DNA of 64,000 bases from Spirochaetia bacterium (GTDB lineage Bacteria > Spirochaetota > Spirochaetia > DSM-16054 > Sediminispirochaetaceae). Under the pieces are notes generated by a model, which ran no database searches, had not been told where the DNA came from, and saw nothing but the letters and a program-made list of their open reading frames with translations. Each line of letters opens with the position of its first letter. Position 1 is the stretch's first letter. Below are positions 38,214 to 54,085 of the stretch, in pieces. Location of the stretch: positions 96,001 to 160,000 of the forward strand of contig JAXHMY010000009.1 of the NCBI GenBank assembly GCA_034520965.1, given 5' to 3'. The position numbers were made by a program, and so were the translations under genes.

Positions 38214-39002
38214 CTATCGACGCGGCGGAAGGGGAAACAGGATGCTGGTCGATTCCCTGTAGGAGCGATATTCCGGATTATCACCATATTTTTTGTAGGC
38301 GCTTTTTTCGAGAAGCGGTATTCCGCTGACAAAAAGAAGTAAGAGAGTGATAAAAAGGGGCCCGATAAGAGTCAACCAGTCAAACCCCCTGAGGGAGGGT
38401 ATGACAACAATGAATAGGCCCCACCACACAAGCATTTCTCCAAAATAATTCGGGTGTCGCGAGTATTTCCATAAGCCGGAATCCACCCAGTGAGCAGCGT
38501 TTTCAGGTTTGCTTTTATAGCGGAACTTTTGTATATCGCTTATGGATTCAATTAACAGGCCCAGTGAAAAAAGTACTATCCCGATTAATGTAAAAAAGAG
38601 GGACCCTTCATCAGATGGCGAAGTGATATACAGGGAGAAAGGAAGCATTACGAGCCATACCGTCGTTGCCTGGAGCACCCAGAATTTGAGAAAATTTATA
38701 AAATCACCTCTTTTATCATCAAAACGATCGTCCTTGCCGATTTTTATTATCCTGTAAAGCAGGTAGGATCCCAGCCGGGCACTCCACAACAGTATAGCCG
38801 CGGAGACAAGCAGCTTATGATAAGAGAACGCCCCCCCGGATGTAAGCAAGAGGAGCAGGGTCAGCAGAAAGAAACTGAGACTATAAGAGATATCGGTAAC
38901 TTTATCAGTCTTGAACGCAGCGGCAAACATAAAAAAGAAGGTATTGATGGCAAAGCTAATAATCAAAGAAAATAGTATCGGATGGGACTGGACAAACTCC
39001 AT
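38214..39002 (-). CDS. DUF1295 / steroid 5-alpha reductase-like membrane protein
   Basis: WSARLGSYL, DDRF, ESISDIQK, GLWKYSRHPNYFGE, SGIPLLE. Confidence 0.9.
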   Translation of the reverse strand: MEFVQSHPILFSLIISFAINTFFFMFAAAFKTDKVTDISYSLSFFLLTLLLLLTSGGAFSYHKLLVSAAILLWSARLGSYLLYRIIKIGKDDRFDDKRGDFINFLKFWVLQATTVWLVMLPFSLYITSPSDEGSLFFTLIGIVLFSLGLLIESISDIQKFRYKSKPENAAHWVDSGLWKYSRHPNYFGEMLVWWGLFIVVIPSLRGFDWLTLIGPLFITLLLLFVSGIPLLEKSAYKKYGDNPEYRSYRESTSILFPLPPRR

Positions 39003-39158
39003 TGTGAGCCTCCCTGATTGGCATAATGGGAGCCTATGATCACACCATAGCATATAGCAATAAACAAAACTCATGCGGCAAGTCTTCATTTATTTTTGCT
39101 ATATCCGGCAAATTTAACTATATTTATTCCATTGAGCGAATCAACAGGGAGTTGTAGA

Positions 39159-39704
39159 ATGAAAAAACACTTTTTGTTCACCTTATTGCTTTTATCTGTA
39201 TACGGACATGCTGAAGCCGGAGGGGAAGCGGAAGCCTTCCATGAAACTGTTTCTTATGTGGATCTTGAACGGTTTACTGGAGACTGGTATGTCATAGCTG
39301 TTATCCCGACTCCCTTTGAGAAGGATGCGGTAAACGGTGTTGAAAACTACAGCCTAAACAAAGACGGTACAATACAAGTAAGATATACCTTCAGAAAAGG
39401 CTCTCCCGAGGGTAAGAAAAAAGTGATGTACCAGAAGGGGTGGATATACAACTCCGAGACAAATGCAGACTGGCGGGTCCGGCCAATCTGGCCCCTCAAA
39501 CTCCCGTATTATATTTTGGAACTTGACGAAGACTACAGCTATACGGTGATAGGCACAAATAACTATAAGTACCTCTGGATAATGGCGCGAAAACCGGTAA
39601 TGGAAAAGACAGTATATGAGGAAATTGTAAAACGAATGGAACAGCGGGGATACGATACTGATAAAATACAGATAATGAAACAAGATTACGAGGGACTGAA
39701 ATGA
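39159..39704 (+). CDS. Lipocalin (Blc-like)
   Basis: VDLERFTGDWYVIA, YYILELDEDYSY, YLWIMAR.P. Confidence 0.9.
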   Translation: MKKHFLFTLLLLSVYGHAEAGGEAEAFHETVSYVDLERFTGDWYVIAVIPTPFEKDAVNGVENYSLNKDGTIQVRYTFRKGSPEGKKKVMYQKGWIYNSETNADWRVRPIWPLKLPYYILELDEDYSYTVIGTNNYKYLWIMARKPVMEKTVYEEIVKRMEQRGYDTDKIQIMKQDYEGLK

Positions 39705-41515
39705 CAGTAGATACTATTACAGGCTTCCACCTTTATCATGGCTTTCTTTCAGGATCTTTTAATATTGCCAAACACCGGGAACATCTGAACAAAATCAATG
39801 TGTTTCCGGTTCCCGACGGTGATACCGGAAACAACATGGTCCAAACCTTCAGATCAATAGTAAAGGGCCTTAAATCTAACCGGTCAGCGGGAAAAATCCT
39901 CGAAGATATTGCCGACAGTTCGCTTGAGCATGCGCGAGGCAATTCCGGTATTATTATTTCCGGCAATACCTTAACAGTCTCTACAAAAACGCCGGTCACA
40001 GAGATTCCTATTCGATTAAAGATTTCGGTACCGCGGTAAAAAAGTACTGCCCTTAGCAAGGCATACCAGGCGATGGAAAACCCTGTTGAGGGAACAATTC
40101 TTACAGTGATAAATGAATGGGCTGAGGTCGTCCACAGCGAGAGCCATAAAGGTAGTGCTTTCGAAAAAATACTATCCAGGGCTTTTGCGGCGGCAAAAAA
40201 GGCTCTTCTAAAAACCCCTGAACAACTGAAAGTACTCAAGGAGAACAATGTAGTCGATGCGGGGGCAAGGGGATTCGTGGATTTCCTTGAAGGCATTGAA
40301 CTTATGAATAAAAACGGCCCGGTTACATCTTCAATTCGAAAGGAATTTATAGTGCCGCCAACTGAAACAGAGGATTATGAAAAGGGAGATCTGCATTCCG
40401 GCCCCGCGATGCTTGATTTCAGATACTGTACCGAAGTACTCCTTGAAAACGTGACGGATTCCCCCGGCAATATACGGAACGACCTGAAGGCAGTAGGGAA
40501 TTCCCTGATTGTGAGTAAGGGAATACACAGAACTCGTATACATATCCATTCAAATAGTCCCGCGGAAGTGGTGAGAAGAGCCGGAGAGTATGGCCGTATC
40601 ACTCAGCAGAAGGCTGATGATATGCTTAGGCAGGAACAGGTCCTTAGTAATCGACTGGGAGATGTGGCAGTTCTCACTGATTCGATAGCGGATATACCCC
40701 AGGAAATTCTTGATACATATCAAATCCATGTTATAAACCTCCAACTGATCTGGGATAATCAGGAATTCCTGGACCGCTTAACTATCTCGCCGGAGGCATT
40801 CTACCGGGAACAGGCTGTCAGAACTTCATTTCCCAGCAGTTCTACTCCTACAAGAGCCAGGGTAGATGCTATGTATCAATATCTGTTAGAGCACTACTCG
40901 GGCATCATTGTCCTTCCGGTAGCGAAAGCCCTGAGCGGTACATGGCAGCAGATGGTGCTTGCCTCCGAATCCTACAACAAAGACGAGCAAAGAATTATAA
41001 CTGTTGATACTCGCCTCAATTCCGCGGCTCAGGGACTCCTGGTTATAGAGATCGCAAAGGCCGCAGCCGAGGGAATGAATCTGGAGGAATTATCTGCTCT
41101 GGCGGAAAACCTGAAAAAGCGCATAAAAATTTTTGTCAGCGTACAGACTTTCAAGTATATGGTGAAAGGGGGCCGTGTGAGTCCCCTCAAGGGGTTCATA
41201 GCCTCCGCTCTGAATATAAAACCGATAGTATCTCTCGATGCTGCGGGAAAGGGAATTGCCTTTGAAAAATCCTTTTCCCAAAAGGGGCTTCTAAAGAAAA
41301 TGGCGGGCATCATTGAAGATATTGAAAAGAGAAAAGGAATCCAGAAGTATTGTGTTGTTCATGCACTTGCAGAAGATAAGGCCAAAGTATTCGCCTCAAT
41401 AGTCGAAAATAGTACAGGCAAAACTCCTGCATATATAAGCTCCATTTCGCCAATCGTAGGCATGCATTCTGGAAAAGGGGCTGTCGCGATTGGACTTATA
41501 GAAAAAGAAGGGTAG
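39701..41515 (+). pseudogene. DAK2 + DegV fusion (fatty acid kinase FakA/FakB-like), frameshifted near 39965-40045
   Basis: LNKINVFPVPDGDTGNNM, ARGNSG, PVEGTILTV, VVDAGARG, YCTE, TDSIADIP, KGGRVS, VGMHSG. Confidence 0.85.
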
Positions 41516-43041: not shown

Positions 43042-44488
43042 ATGAAAAAGATACAGTCCTCCGCTACCCTCAAAAGACTCCTGGTTATTGCCTTTCCTAT
43101 GGTTATCTCGCAGACCTCCGACACGATTATGCTCTTTGTGGACCGGTTTTTCCTCTCTCGGGTGGGGGAGGAATACCTGGCGGCCTCCATGAGCGGCGGT
43201 CTCTCCCAATTTATGCTGGGCTCTTTTTTTATAGGTACTATCGGCTATGTAACGGCGGTAGTGGCCCAGTACTATGGAGCCGGAAGGCATGAAAAATGTG
43301 CCGAAGCGACCTTTCAGGCCATTGTTCTCTCTTTTCTTAGTTATCCCCTTCTTCTGGCGCTTTCTCCGCTCATGCGGATTTTTTTCGCTTCCCTCGGGCA
43401 GACGGATTTACAGGTTGAGCTTGCGTATACCTATTTTCAAACACTTATTTTCGGCGTAATTTTTCTTATACTTCGCCATGCCCTGGCCGGTTTTTTTATC
43501 GGCATAGGAAGAACCACCGTGGTGATGATTGCCAACGCCGTAGGGATGTTTGTGAATATTCCCCTTAACTATGTATTGATCTACGGTAAGCTCGGTTTTC
43601 CCGCCCTCGGCCTTAGGGGTGCAGCTATTGGTACAGTTCTGGGAAATATGACTATCTTTATTATCCTGGCGGCCTTTTACCTTCGGGGCAGAAACCGGAC
43701 TGATTTTTCTACCCACACCGCTCTGTCTTTTCGTCCCAAAATACTCAAGACTCTATTAAAGTTCGGGGTTCCCGCAGGGCTTGGCGATGTTTCTCAACAT
43801 TGCAGCGTTTAACCTCTTTGTACAATCTATGCACTCCTACGGGACCAAGGTTGCGGCGGCGGTCACTATTGCCTTTAACTGGGATGTGGTGGCTTTTTTG
43901 CCGATGCTCGGGATGGGGCACGCCGTTACCGCTCTGGTGGGTCAAAATGTAGGTGCCGGGGATTACCTAGAGGCACGAAAGTCCGCCTTTATCGGCCTTA
44001 AGACCGCCTGGGTCTATTCTTTTTCCATAATGATACTCTTTATTGTAGCTGCCCGCCCCTTGGTGAGCGTGTTTATACCCGGCCTCGGGGGCGGAAGTAC
44101 CGAGGTAAGCAGCATGGCGGTTATCATGCTTCGCCTTGCCTCATTTTACGTGTTGGCGGACTCTGCGCAGATCGTCTTTACCGGTGCCCTGCGTGGTGCC
44201 GGAGATACCCGCTGGGTTATGTTCGTCTCGGTAGCCCTTCACTGGATGTTTGCCTGCGTGGCGCTCGTGCTTATAAGGATTCTCAAGGTAGACCCGGTTA
44301 TTGCATGGCTCGCTTTTATAGGTTTTATCATAGTGATAGGGACCAGCATGTTTCTCCGGTTCCTCGGAGGCAAGTGGAAGGATATTCAAATGATCGACGC
44401 GGAAGCCCCGGAATATCCCTACAGTTTAGGAACGTTTCCAGAAATTATCGCGGAAGAACCGGTAGAGCCTACATTGTCCGAGGACTAA
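43042..44488 (+). pseudogene. MATE family efflux transporter, frameshift near 43780
   Basis: AFPMVI...FVDRFFL, VAQYYGA, NIPLNYVLIYG.LGFPALGLRGAAIGT, GQNVGA, GALRGAGDT. Confidence 0.9.
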
Positions 44489-44638
44489 CCTGGTTGTATA
44501 TATTGCGATAGAAGTTCTTCGCTGATCTCCCAAAACCATCGCCACCTTTGACTGGGAGTACGCCCGGGAGGGGTTGTAGCTTCGGCTCTATTGTAGGTCC
44601 TCAAAATCAATACTGCCGCTTTCATGCACCATAGCTGT

Positions 44639-45160
44639 TTATTTAACCGGTTTGATTCTTACTGTATGTTTTTGCGGATCGTAGGCGGTAGGTACCAGCT
44701 GTATTTCAGCTCCCTCGTTTTCAGCACCAGTGCAGATCTGCTTTAGTGCCTCAAGCTCACGAAGTGCTGTTTCATGACTGTCTTCACCTAAACGGTACGG
44801 CAGATAATGTGAAAAGTCTTGAGTCAAATTTTCATATAAACCCTGCGCAGCGCTTCGTACTTTTTCTGCGCTGCTTAATCTACCGCTCATAAAAACACTC
44901 ATATCTTTCTCGGCATGTTTCCATATACAGTCATCATCAGCATCTTGAAGGGTTCCATTTTGAAGTCGCGTGGGCCGACCATCTCAAGTGCCTGCGGGTA
45001 CATTGCAAGTACTAAAGGGCCGTCCAGATTAGAAAGATGATTCGGCAAAACCAATAGAGGCCCTTTTTCAGGGATATTTTCAATTCCTTCCACAGTTGTG
45101 CTGGTAAGCAGAGAATAGAATGTGTTCAGAAATACTCGACTAAAGTTTCTTCGTTTCTTG
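44639..45160 (-). pseudogene. PlsC-like acyltransferase remnant
   Basis: EGIENIPEKGPLLVLPNHLSNLD (HxxxxD), then internal deletion. Confidence 0.6.
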
Positions 45161-45396
45161 AGAAAAGTAACACTACTTTATTAAAATATTGTAAGTATTT
45201 CACTAAAATACTGTTTGAAGTAATGAATGTAATCATTCAAATGTGTGCGATGTTTTGCTTTCAGAGGGACTTTATGTTATTAGCCCATTATATTGCCTTC
45301 CGGTCTACGGTAACTTTACACACCGCTGATAAGAACCGCGGAATCAGTGTTAGGAAATGTATACATGATTTGATTTCCTGTTCATTTGGTATATTA

Positions 45397-45738
45397 TCAT
45401 TCTGCGTGAATCCTGTGAATCATGAATTCCTTCCCGGTGATGATGCGGAAGTTTGCACTTCCGCATCTGGGGCAGAGATTGTCGTTCTCGACGAGGTTAT
45501 AGTTGAAGTTGCACCCTTCGCACTGTCCAATACCCGGTGTGATCTCCAGTTCGAGATTAGTGTCTTCGAGACGGGATTTTTCAACTGCGATGGGATACAC
45601 ATCTTCCAGGTATTTCGGAACTACGCCCGAGAGCTCCCCGACCTGGAGGACAAGTGTATCGATTCTGCGGATGTTGTTTTCATCCATAAAATCCTCCATC
45701 TGTTTGACGATCTGGATGACGATGCCGAGCTCATGCAT
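45397..45738 (-). CDS. hypA: Nickel metallochaperone HypA
   Basis: N-terminal MHE, VGELSGVVP, CEGC and CPRC, GKEF. Confidence 0.92.
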   Translation of the reverse strand: MHELGIVIQIVKQMEDFMDENNIRRIDTLVLQVGELSGVVPKYLEDVYPIAVEKSRLEDTNLELEITPGIGQCEGCNFNYNLVENDNLCPRCGSANFRIITGKEFMIHRIHAE

Positions 45739-48430
45739 ATTTATTCCCGCTTTTGAAAGTGCCGGTGAGCTTGCGGGCGGTAATGCGCACTTTACGTTTG
45801 AGCGCATGCTTGATAACTTCCTTCTTGAGGTCGGGGAAGTCGACCCCGGTCTCGTTACGGGTTTTTACAAGGCTAATCGCATCGAACTCGCAGCGTGTGG
45901 TACAGGCACCGCAGCCGACACACATGAATTCATCGACGATCGAGACGCCGCAATTCAAACAGCGCTCCGATTCATGTCTGAGCTGTTCCTCAGTGAGTGT
46001 TCCTGCGATCTCATCAAAATCGTTCTTGAAATTTTCCACGGGTCGGGTGTAGACGCGCTCCCTTGAAACGTTGTCGTAGCTTGTAAAATCGACAAGAGTC
46101 TTGTCGAGGGCTTTGTAGTTATTACGTTTGCGTCCGTACACAAGGGACTGACCGCGTTGAACATAGCGATGCAGTGAGATTGCGGCTTCTTTGCCGAGGG
46201 CAATTGCGTCAATGGCGAACTTCGGACCGGTAACCGCATCGCCGCCGGCGAAGATGTCGGGGTCGGTGGACTGAAGCGTAATTTCATCGACCTTGAGGGT
46301 TTTGTTGCGGTTGAGTTCGGCGCTGCTTCCTTTGAGCAGATGGTCCCATTGGATGACCTGGCCGATGGCAACGAGCACCTGGTCGGCGGGAAGGGTGATT
46401 CTGTCGTTCTCATCAAAAGCCGGGGAAAATGCGCCGTCCGCATTGAACACTTGCGTGCAGCGTTTGAATTCAACGGCGGTCACTTTGCCGTCTTGGACGA
46501 TGAAGCGGGCGGGTCCGTACCCGTTCTTAATCTCGACCTTCTCTGCTAACGCTTCGTGGACCTCATCGGCGAGGGCCGGCATTCCCTCTCTGGTTTCAAG
46601 GGTAACCATTGTGGTTTTCTGTGCGCCCTTGCGCACGGCGGTTCTCGCAACGTCAATGGCAACGTTTCCGCCGCCGATAACTATGGTTTCGCCGTTATGG
46701 TCTGCTTCCTTGCCGAGGGCGACATTTTTGAGGTAATCGACACCGGTCTCGACGTTTTTTGCATCTTCTCCTTCGAGTCCGAGTGCCCGGCCGCCCTGGG
46801 CCCCAATGGCAATAAAAACTGCGTTGTAGCCGTCTGCTTTCATTTCCGGGATGGTTATATCCCTGCCAACTTCAACTCCGGTTTTGAATTTCACACCGAG
46901 TTCCTTGAGCACATCGATCTCGGCATTGATGACATCCTTGTTCAATCGGAAGGCCGGAATGCCCAGGTTGAGCATGCCGCCGAGGGTTTTCTCTTTTTCA
47001 AAAACCGTGACGCTGTAGCCCTCTATGGCCAGATAATAGGCACAGGAGAGGCCTGCCGGGCCGGCACCGATAACAGCAATATGCTTGTCGGTGTAGTTAT
47101 GCTTGATCTCTGGTATGTAGCGCTCGTCTTCATTCAAATCTTTCTCGGCCACGAACTTCTTGATATCGTCGATGGCCACGGCTTCATCAAAATCCCCGCG
47201 CGTACATCCGGCCTCACAGAGTGCGGGACAGATACGTCCGCAAACCGCGGGGAAGGGGTTGTCTTTTTTGATGATTTTGAGCGCTTCTTTGTATTTGCCT
47301 TCGCCCGCGAGTTTGATATAGGCGGGTATGGAAATGTGAGACGGACACTCTGTTTTACACGGAGCAGTTCCTGTATCGAGCCCTTCGCTTCTGTTTATCC
47401 GGTAATCGAAATTCCACTTTTCCGTGCCCCATTCCGAGTTGAAGGGGACATCCTTGCGGAATTTGATCTGCGACTCGATGGAACGGCAGAGCCTTTCCCC
47501 GAGCTGAAGAGCTCCGGTGGCGCAGACATCGACACATTCGCCGCAGCCGACACATTTGTCCTTGTCTACCTGGGCTGTATAGTTAGAGCGCACCATATCA
47601 GGGTTGTTGTACATAGTCGCTGAACGAAGTGCATAGCATGAGCAGTAGCAGCAGTTGCAGATAGCGTGAGTGTGTCCCTCGCCCTCGACATTCGGAATCT
47701 GATGCATGAGCCCGTCCTTCTCAGCCCGGGCGATAATTTCGGAGGCCTCTTCCTTTGAGATCTCCCGGCCGCGCCCGGTGCGGATGTAGTATTCCGCCGC
47801 ATCATCGAGCTGGATGCACATATCTTCTTTCAAGTGCCCGCAGCCTTCGCCCATTTCTTCGCGGGAGGTTCGGCATGAACAGTCGGAGACAGAGATAACC
47901 CGGGCCTTGTTCAGGTATCTTGAGATCTCTTCTGACTCGGCAACCCGTGATGTCCCATCGAGGGAGGATTCAATCGGGATGACGCGCATAAGGCCCTTCC
48001 CTACGGGGATGTTTCCAGCGGCAACGGGGTTTCTGAGCCGACCGTAATCATCGAACGCCTTGGCTATCTGGGGATATTTTTTTACATTTTCTCGGTTGTT
48101 GACAACCATCTCGAAAATGCCCGGCACCCAGGTTTCGTGCCAGAACATGTCTACGCCCTCTTTATTGTTCACGGTCGCAACCCCGGCTTCTGCGAGGTCC
48201 CAGAGGATCTTGTGTGTCTTTTCTACGGGTTTATCGGCGCGCTTTGCAACTTCTTCGACGGTCATACGGACGCGGAACTCCAGGGCGAGGGCGACTTCGG
48301 CCATCTCTTCAGTGACCACCTTCTCGAGCAGGAGATAGCGCGGGTCATCGTAGGAGAAACCCTTCTTTGAACCGAATTTTACATTCGATATTTTGTGACA
48401 AAACTTCAATAGCTTTTCGTTTTCAATCAT
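45731..48430 (-). CDS. 899-aa Fe-S flavoprotein: Cys-rich N-terminal domain + ferredoxin + GltD-like FAD/NAD(P) core + ferredoxin
   Basis: CSCR, CGH...MC, HTHAICNCCYCSC, CVGCGECVDVC, APCKTECP, CGRICPALCEAGC, GAGPAG, GGGNVA, RCLNC, CVGCGACTTRC. Confidence 0.9.
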   Translation of the reverse strand: MIENEKLLKFCHKISNVKFGSKKGFSYDDPRYLLLEKVVTEEMAEVALALEFRVRMTVEEVAKRADKPVEKTHKILWDLAEAGVATVNNKEGVDMFWHETWVPGIFEMVVNNRENVKKYPQIAKAFDDYGRLRNPVAAGNIPVGKGLMRVIPIESSLDGTSRVAESEEISRYLNKARVISVSDCSCRTSREEMGEGCGHLKEDMCIQLDDAAEYYIRTGRGREISKEEASEIIARAEKDGLMHQIPNVEGEGHTHAICNCCYCSCYALRSATMYNNPDMVRSNYTAQVDKDKCVGCGECVDVCATGALQLGERLCRSIESQIKFRKDVPFNSEWGTEKWNFDYRINRSEGLDTGTAPCKTECPSHISIPAYIKLAGEGKYKEALKIIKKDNPFPAVCGRICPALCEAGCTRGDFDEAVAIDDIKKFVAEKDLNEDERYIPEIKHNYTDKHIAVIGAGPAGLSCAYYLAIEGYSVTVFEKEKTLGGMLNLGIPAFRLNKDVINAEIDVLKELGVKFKTGVEVGRDITIPEMKADGYNAVFIAIGAQGGRALGLEGEDAKNVETGVDYLKNVALGKEADHNGETIVIGGGNVAIDVARTAVRKGAQKTTMVTLETREGMPALADEVHEALAEKVEIKNGYGPARFIVQDGKVTAVEFKRCTQVFNADGAFSPAFDENDRITLPADQVLVAIGQVIQWDHLLKGSSAELNRNKTLKVDEITLQSTDPDIFAGGDAVTGPKFAIDAIALGKEAAISLHRYVQRGQSLVYGRKRNNYKALDKTLVDFTSYDNVSRERVYTRPVENFKNDFDEIAGTLTEEQLRHESERCLNCGVSIVDEFMCVGCGACTTRCEFDAISLVKTRNETGVDFPDLKKEVIKHALKRKVRITARKLTGTFKSGNKYA

Positions 48431-49101
48431 TACTGTGTACTCCGTTCCTGTATTTTTTTAAGCAGATAGTCGCACCATGCGTCCATACCGTCTCCGGTTT
48501 TTGCAGAGATGGGGAAAATCTTGATGTCGGGGTTTAGTTTTTTAACGCTTTCTTCCAAAGCCTCAAAATCGAAATCGAAGATGGATAGGGCGTCGGTCTT
48601 GCTGATGATAAGTACGTCGACTGCTGTGAACATCTTCGGGTATTTGAGCGGTTTGTCCGAGCCTTCGGGGACAGAGAGGATCATGCAGTTCAAATTCTGC
48701 CCGAGGTCATAGCTTGCAGGGCAGATAAGGTTACCGATGTTCTCGACAACCACGAAGTCCAGCGCCTGGGATTTTATATCGTCAAGGCCTTGTCGCACCA
48801 TCGCCGCATCGAGATGACACATGCCGCCGTTGTGAATCTGGATGACGTCGACACCGGTCTTCTGGATGGTCTTTGCATCGACATCGCTGTCGATGTCGGC
48901 TTCGATGATGCCGATATCAACGTGCTCCTTGATTCTGCTGAGCGTCGAGACCAGCATAGTTGTTTTTCCGGAACCGGGACTGCTCATAAGGTTCATCATA
49001 AAAGTGTCCGTTTGCTTGAGCAGGTCTCTGTTCTCTCCCGCTTCCTTGTCATTGTTCGCATATACGCTTTTTTTTACTTCTATTATTCTTAGTTCATCCA
49101 T
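48430..49101 (-). CDS. hypB: Nickel-insertion GTPase HypB
   Basis: SSPGSGKT, CHLDA, ENIGNLICPA, EGSDKPLKYP, ISAKTG.G. Confidence 0.95.
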   Translation of the reverse strand: MDELRIIEVKKSVYANNDKEAGENRDLLKQTDTFMMNLMSSPGSGKTTMLVSTLSRIKEHVDIGIIEADIDSDVDAKTIQKTGVDVIQIHNGGMCHLDAAMVRQGLDDIKSQALDFVVVENIGNLICPASYDLGQNLNCMILSVPEGSDKPLKYPKMFTAVDVLIISKTDALSIFDFDFEALEESVKKLNPDIKIFPISAKTGDGMDAWCDYLLKKIQERSTQ

Positions 49102-49115
49102 AATACATTCTCCTT

Positions 49116-49943
49116 TTAGTTTCCGTATGCCCTCGCAGAGTATTTCATTACATAGTCCTTGTTTCTATACTTCATAAACCAATAGCCTACATAAAAGATG
49201 TGGAGCCCCAGATTCAGCATGCCCCATGCCGTATGTACCTGGGGGTTGAACCAGGCGCTCGAATCCATAACCGGTGTAAAGATGTCATAGGATGAGCGGA
49301 TGAGGATGTGGATTCCCAGTGTGTAGATACGCCCCATCAGCCAAAGGTCTGAACGCTTCTTAATAAGCATCCAAAGCAACGGCACGGTGAGAATACATAT
49401 GCTCGAGGCAAAGTATGAAGGGTTCTCGCCATACACAAACGCCGCATTCCAGACAGTGTAGAGCAGGCACCAGGCGATCGGCAGGTCAGCGATTAGTTCT
49501 CCGAAATGCCTATGGCCGTCATACTTGGCGATTCGCCAATGCGTGCTGGGAAGCGGAATCGTAATGATTAGGATCACTCCGCAGAGGGCGTTGAATGGAT
49601 TGCCCATCTGGAAATCGGTAATGGTAGCTTCCAGAATATTGAGGGCTAACACTCCAAACAGTATCCATAGCGGCCATTGTTTCTTCAATGCCGGATATCG
49701 ATTCTGGTGTCTGCCGTTATTGGCCATCCGGATGTAGGACACAAAACAAAGCGGAATCAAAACGCTCAGGGTCTTCGACCAGCGGAAAAAACCCTCGAGG
49801 TTCAAAAACCATAGTGGAAATGTGAGCAAAGCGAGGATGAAGAACCATTTATAGAAGGATTCCTTCTCACGGGTGTATTCCAGAAATAGAAACAGGAAAA
49901 GCGTATACGTTCCCATCGAAACGATAAAGCTGAGTGCTTCCAC
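49116..49943 (-). CDS. DUF5692-like multi-pass membrane protein
   Basis: F.W.K..SV, L.LNILEA...D, NAL.G, Y..WN..F.Y, W...R.YTL pattern; AGGAGG RBS. Family name recalled, not searched. Confidence 0.65.
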   Translation of the reverse strand: MEALSFIVSMGTYTLFLFLFLEYTREKESFYKWFFILALLTFPLWFLNLEGFFRWSKTLSVLIPLCFVSYIRMANNGRHQNRYPALKKQWPLWILFGVLALNILEATITDFQMGNPFNALCGVILIITIPLPSTHWRIAKYDGHRHFGELIADLPIAWCLLYTVWNAAFVYGENPSYFASSICILTVPLLWMLIKKRSDLWLMGRIYTLGIHILIRSSYDIFTPVMDSSAWFNPQVHTAWGMLNLGLHIFYVGYWFMKYRNKDYVMKYSARAYGN

Positions 49944-50077
49944 GGTACAACCTCCTAAAGTCGCTAATTTAAAAGTAAAATTAGCTCAAATAGATTTATT
50001 AGATTTATATTTAGCATTATACTCAAAAATAGCCGGAAGGGGTATTGAATTTCGAAGATCTTCACAGCAAGAAAAAC

Positions 50078-50121
50078 AAAAAATAGTCTGTATGTAGACT
50101 TATATAGCAATAAAAGCCTAA
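50078..50121. promoter_or_regulatory. Upstream motif TATAGCAATAAAAGCcTAA, copy 1
   Basis: 18/19 identity with 54228-54246; shared AAAAAATAG and TGTAT to the left. Confidence 0.6.
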
Positions 50122-50159
50122 TTTTATGGAGTTTTGTGTAAGCCTGTGATACACTAGGT

Positions 50160-51134
50160 GTGGTGATGCTTATGAAAACAGAATGCCAGGACATATTCCA
50201 ATCATATAACCTGCCCTTTAAGACCTTTTTCGTCGAGTGCGTCAATCATGAAAAAACCGTGCATCCAGATATCGAACTCATATGGGTGCTCAAGGGAACC
50301 GCCGTGATCGAAACGGAAAAACAGACCTTCAAGCTCCTGCCCGAGACAGTATTCATGGTTTACATGAATGAACCCCATGCCATCTGTGCGGAGAAGGACA
50401 CATTGATTGTCTCATATCGCCTGGATAATGCTTATCTTCATGACCGGGGACTTTTTTTTGAGAAAATACCCTTTAGGCAACGGGTGTTCTCCTTTGAATA
50501 TCTTGCCAAAAAATATAGGCAGGTGCCGCTCCTGCTGTTGCAGCTGCTTAAGTTATTGCTGTCGGAAGAACCGCGTGAGATTATCTATCACAAGATCAAG
50601 GCCTATTACAATTTCTATATCTTCGAGCTCTACGCTATCCTTTCTAAAGAGCGGTTCCTCGATGTAAAGACCATCAATTACGATGTGTATCTCCACCGTA
50701 CGAACATGATCGTCGAATACATTCATGACCATTGCACAGAAAAGGTGACGTTAGAGGATCTCGCCCGCCTCACGGACCTGTCGACATTCCGGGTGTCCCA
50801 TTTTATTAAGGAAGCTCTCGGCGTCTCATTCAAGAATTTTCTGAACAACGTCCGTTTTGAAAGGGCTCTCGAGCTTCTAAACGATTCCTCCGATAGTATC
50901 GTCGAAATCGCAAAAGAGGCCGGCTTCAGCGACTATAAACATTTCAACAGGATTATGAAGGAGCGCTTTGGAAAAACGCCCCTTAAGTTCAAAAAAGAAA
51001 ACACACCTCATGCGAGCAGGAAAGTTCTTCCTATCGAAAATTACAGCTTTATCCTCGAAATCAAGCAATGTCTCAAGAACCTTGAACAGGATTCGAGATT
51101 CCAAGAGCTTTTCAAGTTTGGAAATTTTAACTGA
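50160..51134 (+). CDS. AraC family regulator
   Basis: H.DIELIWVLKG cupin; YIHDH...VTLEDLA, IVEIAKEAGFSD..HFNR..K...G.TP. Confidence 0.92.
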   Translation: MVMLMKTECQDIFQSYNLPFKTFFVECVNHEKTVHPDIELIWVLKGTAVIETEKQTFKLLPETVFMVYMNEPHAICAEKDTLIVSYRLDNAYLHDRGLFFEKIPFRQRVFSFEYLAKKYRQVPLLLLQLLKLLLSEEPREIIYHKIKAYYNFYIFELYAILSKERFLDVKTINYDVYLHRTNMIVEYIHDHCTEKVTLEDLARLTDLSTFRVSHFIKEALGVSFKNFLNNVRFERALELLNDSSDSIVEIAKEAGFSDYKHFNRIMKERFGKTPLKFKKENTPHASRKVLPIENYSFILEIKQCLKNLEQDSRFQELFKFGNFN

Positions 51135-51166: not shown

Positions 51167-52262
51167 CTACAAATCGAGCTCTAATGATTGGTACCCGCCA
51201 TAGTAGGCTTCGGCTAACGATTCGTATACATCGAAATTAAGAAAGAACCGGCTAATCTCATTAGTTTTCTCAGCCGGTTTGATATCCGTAAACGCTTCGG
51301 GATACAGCATAGTCCCGAGATAATAGGCGTTCGCAAGGGCGATCTCGATGTTCGTGGAATAATAATTGTAAGGCATCTGCATGAATACATCGCCCTTATT
51401 GAAGGCTTGCAGACTGTCATAGTATTCCGGCATTGCCTGTATATCCCGCATCAAAAGCTCATAGCCGTTTGCATCGATTACAATGATTTCAGGATCCCAC
51501 ATGAGCAGTTGTTCCTTATTGATGAAGACATACTTTCTTGATTCCTGCGAGGGAGACGACATTTTCCGCATTGATATAGTTGAGAAGGTCATAGTCGCCC
51601 GAAGTGCTTCGGATGCCCTGCACCCCGCTTCTTGGCAGACAACCCAGATAGACGGCTTTGGGGTTTTCAATGCTGGAAGTACGTTCGATAAGGTCAGCTT
51701 TTGTATTTTCAATATAGGTAATGACGGCCGCGGCCCTGGCTTTGTTGCCGGTAACTGCTCCGATTATTCTGAGGGACGCATACATTCTTTCATTGAATAC
51801 ACTGCCGTGGGCGGTGTCGCGGGTAATGGTTACCACCGGAATCCCCGTATTGGCCTGAAGGCGTTCGATTGCCCTGCGTTCATAATGATCGCTCACGATG
51901 ATTACATCCGGATCAGCATTCAGGACCCCTTCGGCGTCGAAGGATGCCTGTGGTCCGCCAGGTCCTACATCGGGAAGTCTGTCGAACCTTTCTTCATAAA
52001 GCTGAGCATAGGGCCGTCCGGCGGTGTTTTTGTTTTTTTCAAAAGTCTCGATTCCAACGATTTTATCGGGTTCTCCTATATAGGTATAAAGCCTGAGGGC
52101 GCCCGGCCCTATCGCTATGAAACGGTTGGATTTGGAAGGGACCGAGACTTCACGTTCGTACACATCCAGTACTGTGATGGAAGCTGCGTCTGCGATGGCC
52201 GCACCGCAGCTCCACAGTAAAAAAACGAAGGCGTATGTTGAAAGTAAAAAAAAGTTCTTCAT
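51167..52262 (-). pseudogene. Metal-chelate (FecB/BtuF-type) ABC substrate-binding lipoprotein, frameshift near 51530
   Basis: LLWSC lipobox, GPGALRL, RPY, EQLL.WDPEIIVID, PYNYYSTN, G..LYPE.F.D. Confidence 0.85.
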
Positions 52263-52278
52263 AGTGTGATCTCCTGTT

Positions 52279-53025
52279 CTAGTAAATAACATTTTTCATG
52301 CCCTTGTGGTGCAGGATTTCAGCGTGAACACCATACACGGTCTCTATCATATCGCTTGTTATGATATGCTCTTCTCCAAAGCCATACACCCGACTATCTT
52401 TCATGAAGAGATACTTGTTGGAGAAGCGCATGGCGAGATTGACGTCATGCATGCAGACGATAAGGGTTCGATTTTCAGTTTCGGAGAGGTCCTTGATGCA
52501 GTGTGCTATTTCTAGCTGATTTTTCATGTCCAGATTGCTGGTGGGTTCATCCATCAGGATGATCGGGGTCTCCTGGGTGAGCGCCCGGGTAATGAACACT
52601 TTTTGCCTTTCGCCTCCGCTGAGACGGCTAATGGGTGTCAGCGCTTTGTCTGAAAGGCCGAATTTTTCTATGTAGGCTTCAGTTATTCTGAGGTCTTCCT
52701 TTGTGACGTCGTAACGGATGTGGGGTCTTCTTCCAAGAAGAACAGTATCGAATACGGTGGCGTCCGTGAAAGACCCCTCCTGCGAGACATAACTCACCTG
52801 CCTTGCAAGTTCGTCGCTTGAATACTCATGCAGCGGTTTTCCATTCAAGTGAATTGCCGAATTTGTCTTAAGAATTCCGAGCAGACATTTGAGTAAGGTC
52901 GATTTGCCCACCCCGTTCTCTCCGAGTAGTGTGACACAATCGCCCTTTTCCACTTTGAAGGAGATGGCATCGAGCACTGTATTTGAGCCGTATTTGAAAG
53001 TCAGATTATTTACTTCAATGGGCAT
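52279..53025 (-). CDS. Metal-chelate ABC ATPase
   Basis: GENGVGKST, LSGGERQKV, DEPTSNLD, HDVNLA. Confidence 0.92.
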   Translation of the reverse strand: MPIEVNNLTFKYGSNTVLDAISFKVEKGDCVTLLGENGVGKSTLLKCLLGILKTNSAIHLNGKPLHEYSSDELARQVSYVSQEGSFTDATVFDTVLLGRRPHIRYDVTKEDLRITEAYIEKFGLSDKALTPISRLSGGERQKVFITRALTQETPIILMDEPTSNLDMKNQLEIAHCIKDLSETENRTLIVCMHDVNLAMRFSNKYLFMKDSRVYGFGEEHIITSDMIETVYGVHAEILHHKGMKNVIY

Positions 53026-54085
53026 ATCGCATCCGACCTTTGAACAGGATGTAGAGGAAAAGGGGGGCACCGAGCATTGAGGTGATTGCCCCAACAGGCA
53101 GGACAATCGGGCTCAGTAAAGACCGGCTGAGCATGTCCGCGAGCAGGAGTATCAGGCTCCCCAGCAGCATCGACCCCGGTATTAAAAAGCGATGATCGTG
53201 ACCAATTATTCGGCGCATGATATGCGGGCCAAGCAGGCCGACAAAACTGATCATGCCGAGAAACGCCACAGAGACTGCGGTAATCAGCGCAGCGAGGAAA
53301 AGCGAAACAAACCGGACTCTGCTCACATCCACGCCAAGACTTCTCGCAGTGTCATTCCCGTTGGCGAGGGCGTTGTAATCCCAGCGCTTCCGGTAGAAGT
53401 AGAGTGAAGCCAGCCCCACTACGATGCTAAGGATCGCAAGTGCATGCCATCCGATTCTGCTGAGGTCGCCAAAAGTCCAGAAGATCGCTTTTGAGAGTTC
53501 CGTTTCGTCCGCGAAATACTGGACCAGCGTTGTCATTGCATTGAACAGTGCGCTGATTGCAACTCCCGCCAGAATGATCGCCTGCGGAGTGAATCCTTTC
53601 ATTTTGGAAAGCATCAGGATCGCGAGGGTCGATCCCATCGCGAACAAGAAGGCAAAAAGGGTGGTGAGGTAAGGCATCTCCGCAATGCCTGAATGGACAC
53701 CTGAGATCGTTGTTGCCAGAATAATTGCCAGGTTGGCTCCGAAAATCGCCGCTGAAGAGATTCCGAGGGTGGAAGGGGATGCGAGGGGATTCTTGAGCCC
53801 GATCTGCATCACGCATCCCGCGACCGAGAGTCCTGCCCCTGCCACGACAGCTGCAATTATTCTCGGGAGGCGAAGCTTGAAAACCACCATATGGTGGCGC
53901 GCCGCGCTTCCAATTCCGAACAACGTCCTGATGACTTCAAGGAATCCGAGTTCATACGATCCGATCATGATCGCTACGATGCCCGCGACCGCAATAGTAA
54001 GGGTAATCAGAATAAGAAAAAGCTTTTTCTTTCTGATATGGTTTTCGTAACGTTCAAGATGGCTGTACATAATATTATTCCGCAT
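53015..54085 (-). CDS. FecCD/BtuC family ABC permease
   Basis: LRLPRI, NPLASPSTLGIS, ARSLGV, ISFVGLLGPHIMR, LPVGAITS.LGAP.F. Confidence 0.95.
   Translation of the reverse strand: MRNNIMYSHLERYENHIRKKKLFLILITLTIAVAGIVAIMIGSYELGFLEVIRTLFGIGSAARHHMVVFKLRLPRIIAAVVAGAGLSVAGCVMQIGLKNPLASPSTLGISSAAIFGANLAIILATTISGVHSGIAEMPYLTTLFAFLFAMGSTLAILMLSKMKGFTPQAIILAGVAISALFNAMTTLVQYFADETELSKAIFWTFGDLSRIGWHALAILSIVVGLASLYFYRKRWDYNALANGNDTARSLGVDVSRVRFVSLFLAALITAVSVAFLGMISFVGLLGPHIMRRIIGHDHRFLIPGSMLLGSLILLLADMLSRSLLSPIVLPVGAITSMLGAPLFLYILFKGRMRYAH

Follow-up and report, generated by a model that had tools for sequence, protein, structure and literature searches.

The nearest described relative of the oxidoreductase unit examined here, which lies in a 64,000-nucleotide stretch of a Spirochaetia bacterium genome (the window; GCA_034520965.1, contig JAXHMY010000009.1, positions 96,001 to 160,000), is IsrA (VUZ27132.1, 901 residues), a putative isoprene reductase from Acetobacterium wieringae ISORED-2 / strain Y. 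Kronen et al. (2023; PMC10134865) defined clade 9 and, among 988 homologues, reported hypA, hypB and DUF5692 genes as neighbours at frequencies of 0.73, 0.56 and 0.4, respectively. They proposed that nickel is inserted into a site of six cysteines (Cys6), which in their model lies where a four-cluster wire and a substrate tunnel end. The isr operon also encodes a ferredoxin that shares its first ~270 residues with IsrA, for which the authors saw no association with hypA/B, and the strict operon carries a 26-residue insertion at IsrA positions 756-782. In A. wieringae, IsrA, HypA and HypB are isoprene-induced; butadiene is a further compound that strain Y reduces, and the A. woodii homologue has an oleate hydratase as a neighbour (PMC10134865). 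In a Pelotomaculum culture given isoprene, hypA and hypB were ~373-fold and ~585-fold up (10.64898/2026.02.25.708027); the accessible parts of two 2026 preprints contain induction data in Pelotomaculum and no biochemistry.

A first-pass annotation of the window had singled out a unit in which hypB and hypA bracket an Fe-S flavoprotein, and had called it a candidate new nickel-dependent redox system. The novelty does not hold, as the family, its linkage with hypA, hypB and DUF5692, and the nickel hypothesis are all in Kronen et al. (2023; PMC10134865). Since the nickel idea has been in print from 2023, what the window adds is a further member and sharper handles.

An IsrA-family enzyme in a spirochaete

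The enzyme almost certainly belongs to the IsrA/clade 9 family, in which it was placed through the accessions of its homologues and not by alignment to IsrA. Six homologues, 59-67% identical to it over 876-895 residues, all have their accessions in a supplementary tree file of Kronen et al. that lists VUZ27132.1 (an uncaptioned file, taken as Fig. S4; five of the accessions are proteins matched here and one is a 90% cluster mate). As far as the available description of IsrA goes, both proteins have about 900 residues, an unclassified N-terminal portion of ~270 residues whose two CxC motifs are spaced by 74 residues (C184/C186 and C258/C260 here, C180/C182 and C254/C256 in IsrA), a split ferredoxin with motifs near 290-300 and 840-880, and the families PF14691 and PF07992. 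The two loci also share hypA, hypB and DUF5692 as neighbours, and no hydrogenase is recorded in either genome. Compared with the described isr operon, the window unit has one hypA instead of two and no ferredoxin gene inside, DUF5692 leads it and AraC is divergent; a domain-plus-ferredoxin protein is encoded on another contig (C7) beside a hypAB pair of its own, whereas Kronen et al. did not find such a link for their ferredoxin. The unit is a clade-9 member and not a strict isr operon.

Enzyme architecture and a candidate metal site

The enzyme combines an N-terminal Cys domain with a split ferredoxin (C293-C303, C824-C847), a DPD-II two-cluster domain (354-433) and a domain for flavin adenine dinucleotide (FAD) and nicotinamide adenine dinucleotide (NAD) or its phosphate (450-744). 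The cysteines at 293-303, 358-409 and 824-847 were invariant in all 75 aligned proteins. Residues ~340-835 align with the FAD-NAD(P)-2[4Fe-4S] module of GltD, NfnB, DsrL and dihydropyrimidine dehydrogenase (PDB 9bov, 9n5u, 8oh5, 4ylf) with E-values down to 6e-101, whereas proteins of these four types have neither the N-terminal Cys domain nor hypAB. Their basic NADPH motif is replaced in the enzyme, whose second Rossmann fold has TLETRE at its end in place of the YRRT of NADPH-using GltD-like proteins. We take this replacement to indicate a preference for NADH.

None of the best 25 NCBIfam models listed for the enzyme reached its cut-off. Residues 1-285 gave no Pfam match and no convincing PDB match, either as a single sequence or as a 49-sequence profile, and the Atlas matches of the domain were unnamed or Fer4 clusters only. 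The best profile match of residues ~20-100, to ArsR-type regulators (E 0.0085), is weak and serves as a lead only. Of 8,000 protein clusters scored, 6,151 match residues 1-300 at E ≤ 1e-20.

Nine cysteines together with H199, H243 and H255 were invariant among 75 close homologues, which were collected with scan patterns containing some of these residues. A distant conservation set of 105 sequences narrowed the list. C184, C186, R187, C205, H243, C258, N259, C260 and C265 were invariant in all 16 long representatives, and the Cys6/His core was kept, depending on the position, in 52 to 61 of the 61 short ones. C197 (kept in 12 of 16), C261, C263 and H199 (8 of 16 each) and H255 varied among the long representatives, and H253 varied even among close homologues. 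The Cys/His motifs quoted by the first-pass annotation for this domain therefore survive in their core, but not at these six positions. With the variable residues dropped, exactly six cysteines remain, matching the Cys6 site of Kronen et al. (2023).

Conservation of the hypA-hypB linkage

Scanning the GTDB species genomes yielded at least 513 confirmed stretches, of which the best 80 serve here as the related loci. In 57 of these the enzyme has hypB and hypA both next to it, in 12 it has one of the two (several contigs end there) and in 11 neither. Ten of these 11 were checked genome-wide, and in all ten the best hypA lay directly behind another enzyme homologue. Carriers span Bacillota, Mycoplasmatota, Chloroflexota, Spirochaetota and others, and the full five-gene layout is present in seven of the 80 loci. 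The possibility that the arrangement is not conserved, on which the first-pass annotation had made its proposal depend, is answered by these counts. In L069 and L077, a single hypA lies between two tandem 900-residue enzyme copies, and FmdE-family genes occur near the unit in three loci (L001:1650-2177, L019:3303-3866, L047), directly before hypB in L019.

Among 39 aligned enzyme-linked HypAs, residues M1, H2, E3, C73, C76, C89 and C92 were invariant. The TIGR00100 model gave the window HypA 67 bits, under its cut-off of 88, with a query lacking Met1. In HypB, the G-domain metal motif C95-H96...C127 is intact and there is no N-terminal metal-binding extension. Family and metal-binding residues are thus common to these proteins and to the HypA/HypB of [NiFe]-hydrogenase and Helicobacter pylori urease maturation. 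The differences are that hypC, hypD, a large subunit and urease were not detected in this genome and that the enzyme-linked HypBs group apart from hydrogenase HypBs. In a quick IQ-TREE phylogeny of 58 HypB rows, for which every second enzyme-linked row was retained (32 of 63), the 32 enzyme-linked rows lie on one side of a branch (SH-like approximate likelihood ratio test, 94) and 11 hydrogenase-linked rows, several from the same genomes, lie apart. The window HypB nests among Izemoplasmatales rows.

Other candidate nickel clients

Neither the window nor the whole genome (86% complete) has a match to PF00374, PF00346 (group-4 type), HypC, HypD, urease or LarC; HypE and HypF were not searched for. 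By its content the locus is not one for [NiFe]-hydrogenase maturation, since hypC, hypD and a large subunit were not found in this 86% complete genome. The only Prismane/carbon monoxide dehydrogenase-family match is a frameshifted gene on contig C3 (L136:1730-3362), which we read as a hybrid-cluster protein from its N-terminal motif; carbon monoxide dehydrogenase was set aside as a HypAB client on that reading. A LarA-like gene is present. LarA has its own cofactor route, and with LarC not found in the genome it is an unlikely client.

The HypD search was given the first 50 of the 57 loci that have both chaperones, and 49 carrier genomes were scored. No HypD match was obtained in 24 of the 49, and none of these 24 had PF00374 over the cut-off. 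One carrier, outside the 24, has a full-length urease match, while 14 others gave short partial matches only. Of the 25 HypD-positive carriers, 16 have at least two hypB genes, and 11 of those keep a separate hypB within 5 kilobases (kb) of hypD. A CbiM/NikM-type transporter follows hypA directly in two loci (L057 and L072) among 77 neighbours scanned. Five loci of Erysipelotrichales type (L021, L025, L026, L028, L034) encode a His-containing membrane protein with a weak DsbD_2 match, directly after hypA in L025 (11024-11722); we regard it as a possible UreH/NicO-like nickel permease.

Stand-alone copies of the N-terminal domain

The first-pass annotation had considered that these might be the only hypAB of the genome, which is not the case. 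Contig C7 holds a second hypA-hypB pair (109684-110703), convergent with and 10 nucleotides (nt) from a gene for a 388-residue protein made of the N-terminal domain and a ferredoxin; on the strand of that gene, a Dps-like ferritin gene and a Fur-family gene are immediately upstream of it. The same neighbours were found in all eight relatives fetched, most of which are kin, one being from another family at 35% identity. That the second pair faces a stand-alone copy of the domain points to the N-terminal Cys domain as the client. In metagenomes, hypB adjoins six of 80 copies of the stand-alone domain (30-68% identity). The hypAB link recurs for the short form, but as a minority state. Further along the C7 locus (L081:15156-17648) is a gene for an 830-residue protein that, to our eye, resembles two tandem KamA-type radical-SAM halves.

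Proposed function and competing explanations

The model of a dedicated chaperone pair is supported by the linkage in 57 of 80 loci, by the 24 of 49 carriers without HypD, by the separate HypB group and by the lack of another client found in the genome. On this genomic evidence, and with the second pair at a copy of the same domain, the first-pass proposal that the sandwiched protein is the client of HypA and HypB is likely to be correct, and we hold it with considerable confidence. Nickel is a reasonably probable identity for the metal. In the mechanism that we propose, NADH would reduce the FAD and four [4Fe-4S] clusters would relay the electrons to the N-terminal site. HypB, using GTP, would hand nickel to HypA, which would load the site and so give a Ni/Fe-S centre. 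This centre would hydrogenate a conjugated diene, our lead guess for this subgroup being a conjugated fatty acid or isoprenoid and not isoprene. The role foreseen for DUF5692 is to present the hydrophobic substrate or pass it on, and direct repeats upstream of the unit would let AraC activate it. The whole reading, in which HypAB load nickel into the N-terminal Cys domain and the enzyme uses NADH to reduce a conjugated C=C bond of a hydrophobic substrate, has in our judgement an even chance of being right. Hydrogenation of C=C bonds by the enzyme is just as finely balanced, and a fatty-acid or isoprenoid substrate is a tentative suggestion.

Clues to the substrate came from the 120 nearest non-core neighbours, of which 77 were Pfam-scanned (mostly repeat regulators were left out). 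A full-length homologue of the polyunsaturated fatty acid isomerase from Propionibacterium acnes (PDB 2B9W, E 2e-75) occurs in two of 260 loci: in L019 (498-1751) it lies upstream of a long-form unit and shares its strand, and in L132 (9121-10389) it is beside a short-form unit. In L064 the gene after hypA is carotenoid-isomerase-like, and in L020 it encodes an acyl-CoA ligase. These sparse clues point to unsaturated lipids. A fatty-acid pathway in the host itself was considered and rejected, with no oleate hydratase and no isomerase homologue found in the genome.

Several observations weigh against the proposal as a whole. Nine of the 25 HypD-positive carriers (G009, G012, G027, G028, G029, G031, G032, G041 and the complete genome G050) gave no hypB besides the enzyme-linked one, which could thus also serve a hydrogenase there; the hypAB of these nine genomes may be annotated wrongly as hydrogenase factors, or may serve both. 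The host genome is 86% complete, and completeness figures are not given for the 49 carriers. The clustering of the HypBs is partly built in, because the enzyme-linked rows were chosen by enzyme similarity, and the HypBs beside stand-alone domain copies do not form one group in the tree (three changes). Of 21 stand-alone loci whose flanks extend at least 1.5 kb either way, only three have hypAB beside them, and a third paralogue in the host genome (429 residues; contig C1, L127:7708-8997), homologues of which occur in several relatives, has no hypAB nearby. No catabolic or fatty-acid family recurs among the 77 scanned neighbours. The isomerase homologue was found in none of the 49 other carrier genomes (a search with no positive control) and not in the host, which makes it a hint on chemistry and not a pathway. 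Lastly, no purification, metal analysis or demonstration of nickel for any member was found in the literature searched, most subscription journals lying outside it.

An enzyme that is a nickel client of HypAB could catalyse another reaction, for instance with a sulfur, nitrogen or small-molecule acceptor, isoprene reduction being a side activity or specific to a subclade. The evidence on isoprene is of induction only and comes from one distant subclade, and other Acetobacterium strains whose homologues are 47-49% identical show no isoprene reduction (PMC10134865). Regulators also differ between loci (GntR, TetR, AraC) and no substrate gene recurs. In the other direction, isoprene induced no redox protein but IsrA in that culture (PMC10134865), and the few catabolic neighbours described above (isomerase, carotenoid-isomerase-like, acyl-CoA ligase) act on unsaturated lipids; we give this explanation a minor but real probability. 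It is unlikely, in our view, that HypAB serve the enzyme with zinc, iron or cobalt, or that the Cys6 site holds an all-iron cluster. The likeness of this site to P-cluster and double-cubane sites (PMC10134865) would fit such a case, as would the stand-alone domain copies, most of which have no adjacent hypAB; the CbiM-type neighbours do not distinguish nickel from cobalt. The invariant MHE nickel site of the linked HypAs and the intact CH...C motif of HypB argue for nickel, which is also what characterised HypA/HypB pairs deliver, as that paper relates (PMC10134865).

It appears very improbable that hypA and hypB act in the maturation of a [NiFe]-hydrogenase or of some other known nickel enzyme encoded elsewhere and are merely co-regulated with the flavoprotein. 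Such a role would accommodate the nine carriers with no other hypB, the incomplete host assembly and the LarA-like gene. Yet the 24 carriers without HypD include none with a large subunit over the cut-off or a full urease match, both hypAB pairs of the host sit at copies of the same domain, and LarC was not found. In addition, several Clostridium acetogens are described as having hypCDEF without any hypAB (PMC9431212, in its accessible part), so that the hydrogenases of such genomes may not need hypAB.

Gene layout, regulation and membrane protein

The features of the unit are given in Table 1. The minus-strand order DUF5692, hypB, oxidoreductase, hypA, with araC divergent, was borne out, all five frames being open as first placed; the TAATG junction of hypB and enzyme at 48430 and the 8-nt overlap of enzyme and hypA (45731-45738) were likewise read in the sequence. 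The likely start of araC is the ATG at 50172, from which the L001 orthologue (78% identical) aligns.

Table 1. Coordinates of the unit and associated features (window positions unless indicated)
Feature	Coordinates	Strand	Details
hypA	45397-45738	-	113 residues; PF01155 E 6.5e-28; starts MHE, two CxxC zinc motifs
Oxidoreductase, IsrA-family (clade 9) Fe-S flavoprotein (family placement almost certain)	45731-48430	-	899 residues; PF07992 + PF14691 + Fer4
Cys6/His core of the enzyme N-terminal domain (C184, C186, C205, H243, C258, C260, C265)	47636-47881	-	Candidate metal site; residue conservation
Possible winged-helix subdomain, enzyme residues ~20-100	48130-48370	-	Weak profile matches to ArsR-type regulators
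hypB GTPase	48430-49101	-	223 residues; TIGR00073 249 bits vs cut-off 121.2
DUF5692 membrane protein	49116-49943	-	275 residues; PF18948 E 2.5e-9
Two 16-nt direct repeats, likely AraC-family half-sites	50120-50105 and 50080-50065 (span 50065-50120)	-	Intergenic alignment
AraC-family regulator, divergent	50160/50172-51134	+	PF12833, PF02311
FecCD-type ABC transporter (permease, ATPase, frameshifted binding protein)	51173-54085	-	Pfam
Second hypA-hypB and 388-residue Cys-domain/ferredoxin gene	G000 contig C7 109684-111879 (L081:9685-11880)

A 16-nt motif consensus was drawn from an alignment of 11 intergenic regions between araC and DUF5692. At least one copy is present in all 17 araC-linked regions, ~100 nt ahead of the start (in the window 137 nt, with degenerate copies), and copies are paired at 40-43 nt spacing in eight of the 17, including the window (40 nt); these counts are flattered by a consensus derived from the same loci. 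As controls, shuffles gave 0.04-0.5 matches per region, and of 14 araC-free regions three had a match with four mismatches and none had one with three or fewer. Direct repeats fit binding by AraC-family proteins. The pair in the window is thus a likely AraC site, giving AraC control of the unit a candidate operator. Scans for sigma-70 promoters and terminators remained at chance level (10 vs 7.7 ± 2.4; 9 vs 6.0 ± 2.7).

DUF5692 has at least five hydrophobic segments and is multi-pass, and all of its Atlas matches are DUF5692. Its conserved polar residues are E22, K57, N102, E105, D110, N118, W165, N166 and R205 (54 homologues, from 48 of the 80 loci). No function for this family was found in the literature searched.

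Genomic surroundings

The first-pass annotation had described the neighbours on both sides as disrupted. This is correct for the immediate ones, namely the binding-protein gene of the ATP-binding cassette (ABC) transporter and the region at 44.5-45.2 kb, but not for the ABC ATPase and permease genes beyond, which are whole. The binding-protein gene is frameshifted at ~51537, and is whole in L001 and, on one contig, in a related strain. The 44.5-45.2 kb region is a remnant riddled with deletions compared with G067. A MATE transporter gene is split at ~43783 (window 43042-45211) and after it come remnants of several genes that have internal deletions, again relative to G067. An assembly error behind the broken binding-protein gene was considered and is unsupported, as reads of one salt-pan metagenome run, possibly the source sample, match the window at 51537 (depth 3.6). 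Two runs of one study, from a related strain and labelled metatranscriptomic (their RNA status is a guess), yielded short contigs on all five genes and also on the ABC genes; they were not counted as evidence, and no run carrying the unit is recorded as RNA. About 4 kb downstream of the unit, window positions 38214-41515 hold a small lipid-handling cluster of DUF1295, lipocalin and Dak2/DegV (split) genes. These three are not recurrent neighbours of the unit; another DUF1295 gene is found close to the L132 locus.

The FecCD permease cluster is present in five of the 80 loci, and the transporter could possibly import a metal chelate. In L001, from an Izemoplasmatales metagenome-assembled genome, it is syntenic with the unit in the same order at 47-64% identity; this is the whole unit nearest to that of the window, at 76% DNA identity over 5.7 kb, and the contig is possibly misbinned. 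Housekeeping proteins of the host have cluster mates named Spirochaetia or Spirochaetaceae. Two assemblies of the same genus as the host carry 94-95% identical fragments of the DUF5692-araC-ABC region on short contigs, and the enzyme was not found in 16 relatives of the family (E ≤ 1e-30). The unit is likely a mobile accessory block.

Significance for the family

The window and its genome contribute a minimal ligand set, a 388-residue stand-alone form that is easier to test, a probable operator and the fatty-acid clue. The host genome holds both a fused and a stand-alone form, each with a separate chaperone pair. To our knowledge, few classes of nickel enzyme are known. As a speculative extension, the ~270-residue Cys6/His domain may be the catalytic module of an uncharacterised nickel enzyme class with more than 6,000 long-form clusters, either fused to an NADH/flavin module or stand-alone and ferredoxin-fed, each form able to carry its own HypAB, that would hydrogenate conjugated double bonds in fatty acids or isoprenoids of anaerobes. 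The matches behind this family are broad, with at least 513 stretches in the GTDB species collection and more than 6,000 protein clusters. If HypAB do load nickel into the domain, a very widespread protein family of anaerobes, its members at present labelled 'FAD-dependent oxidoreductase', would be a further nickel class with the ability to hydrogenate unactivated dienes, and counts of hypA and hypB would be unsafe as markers of hydrogenases.

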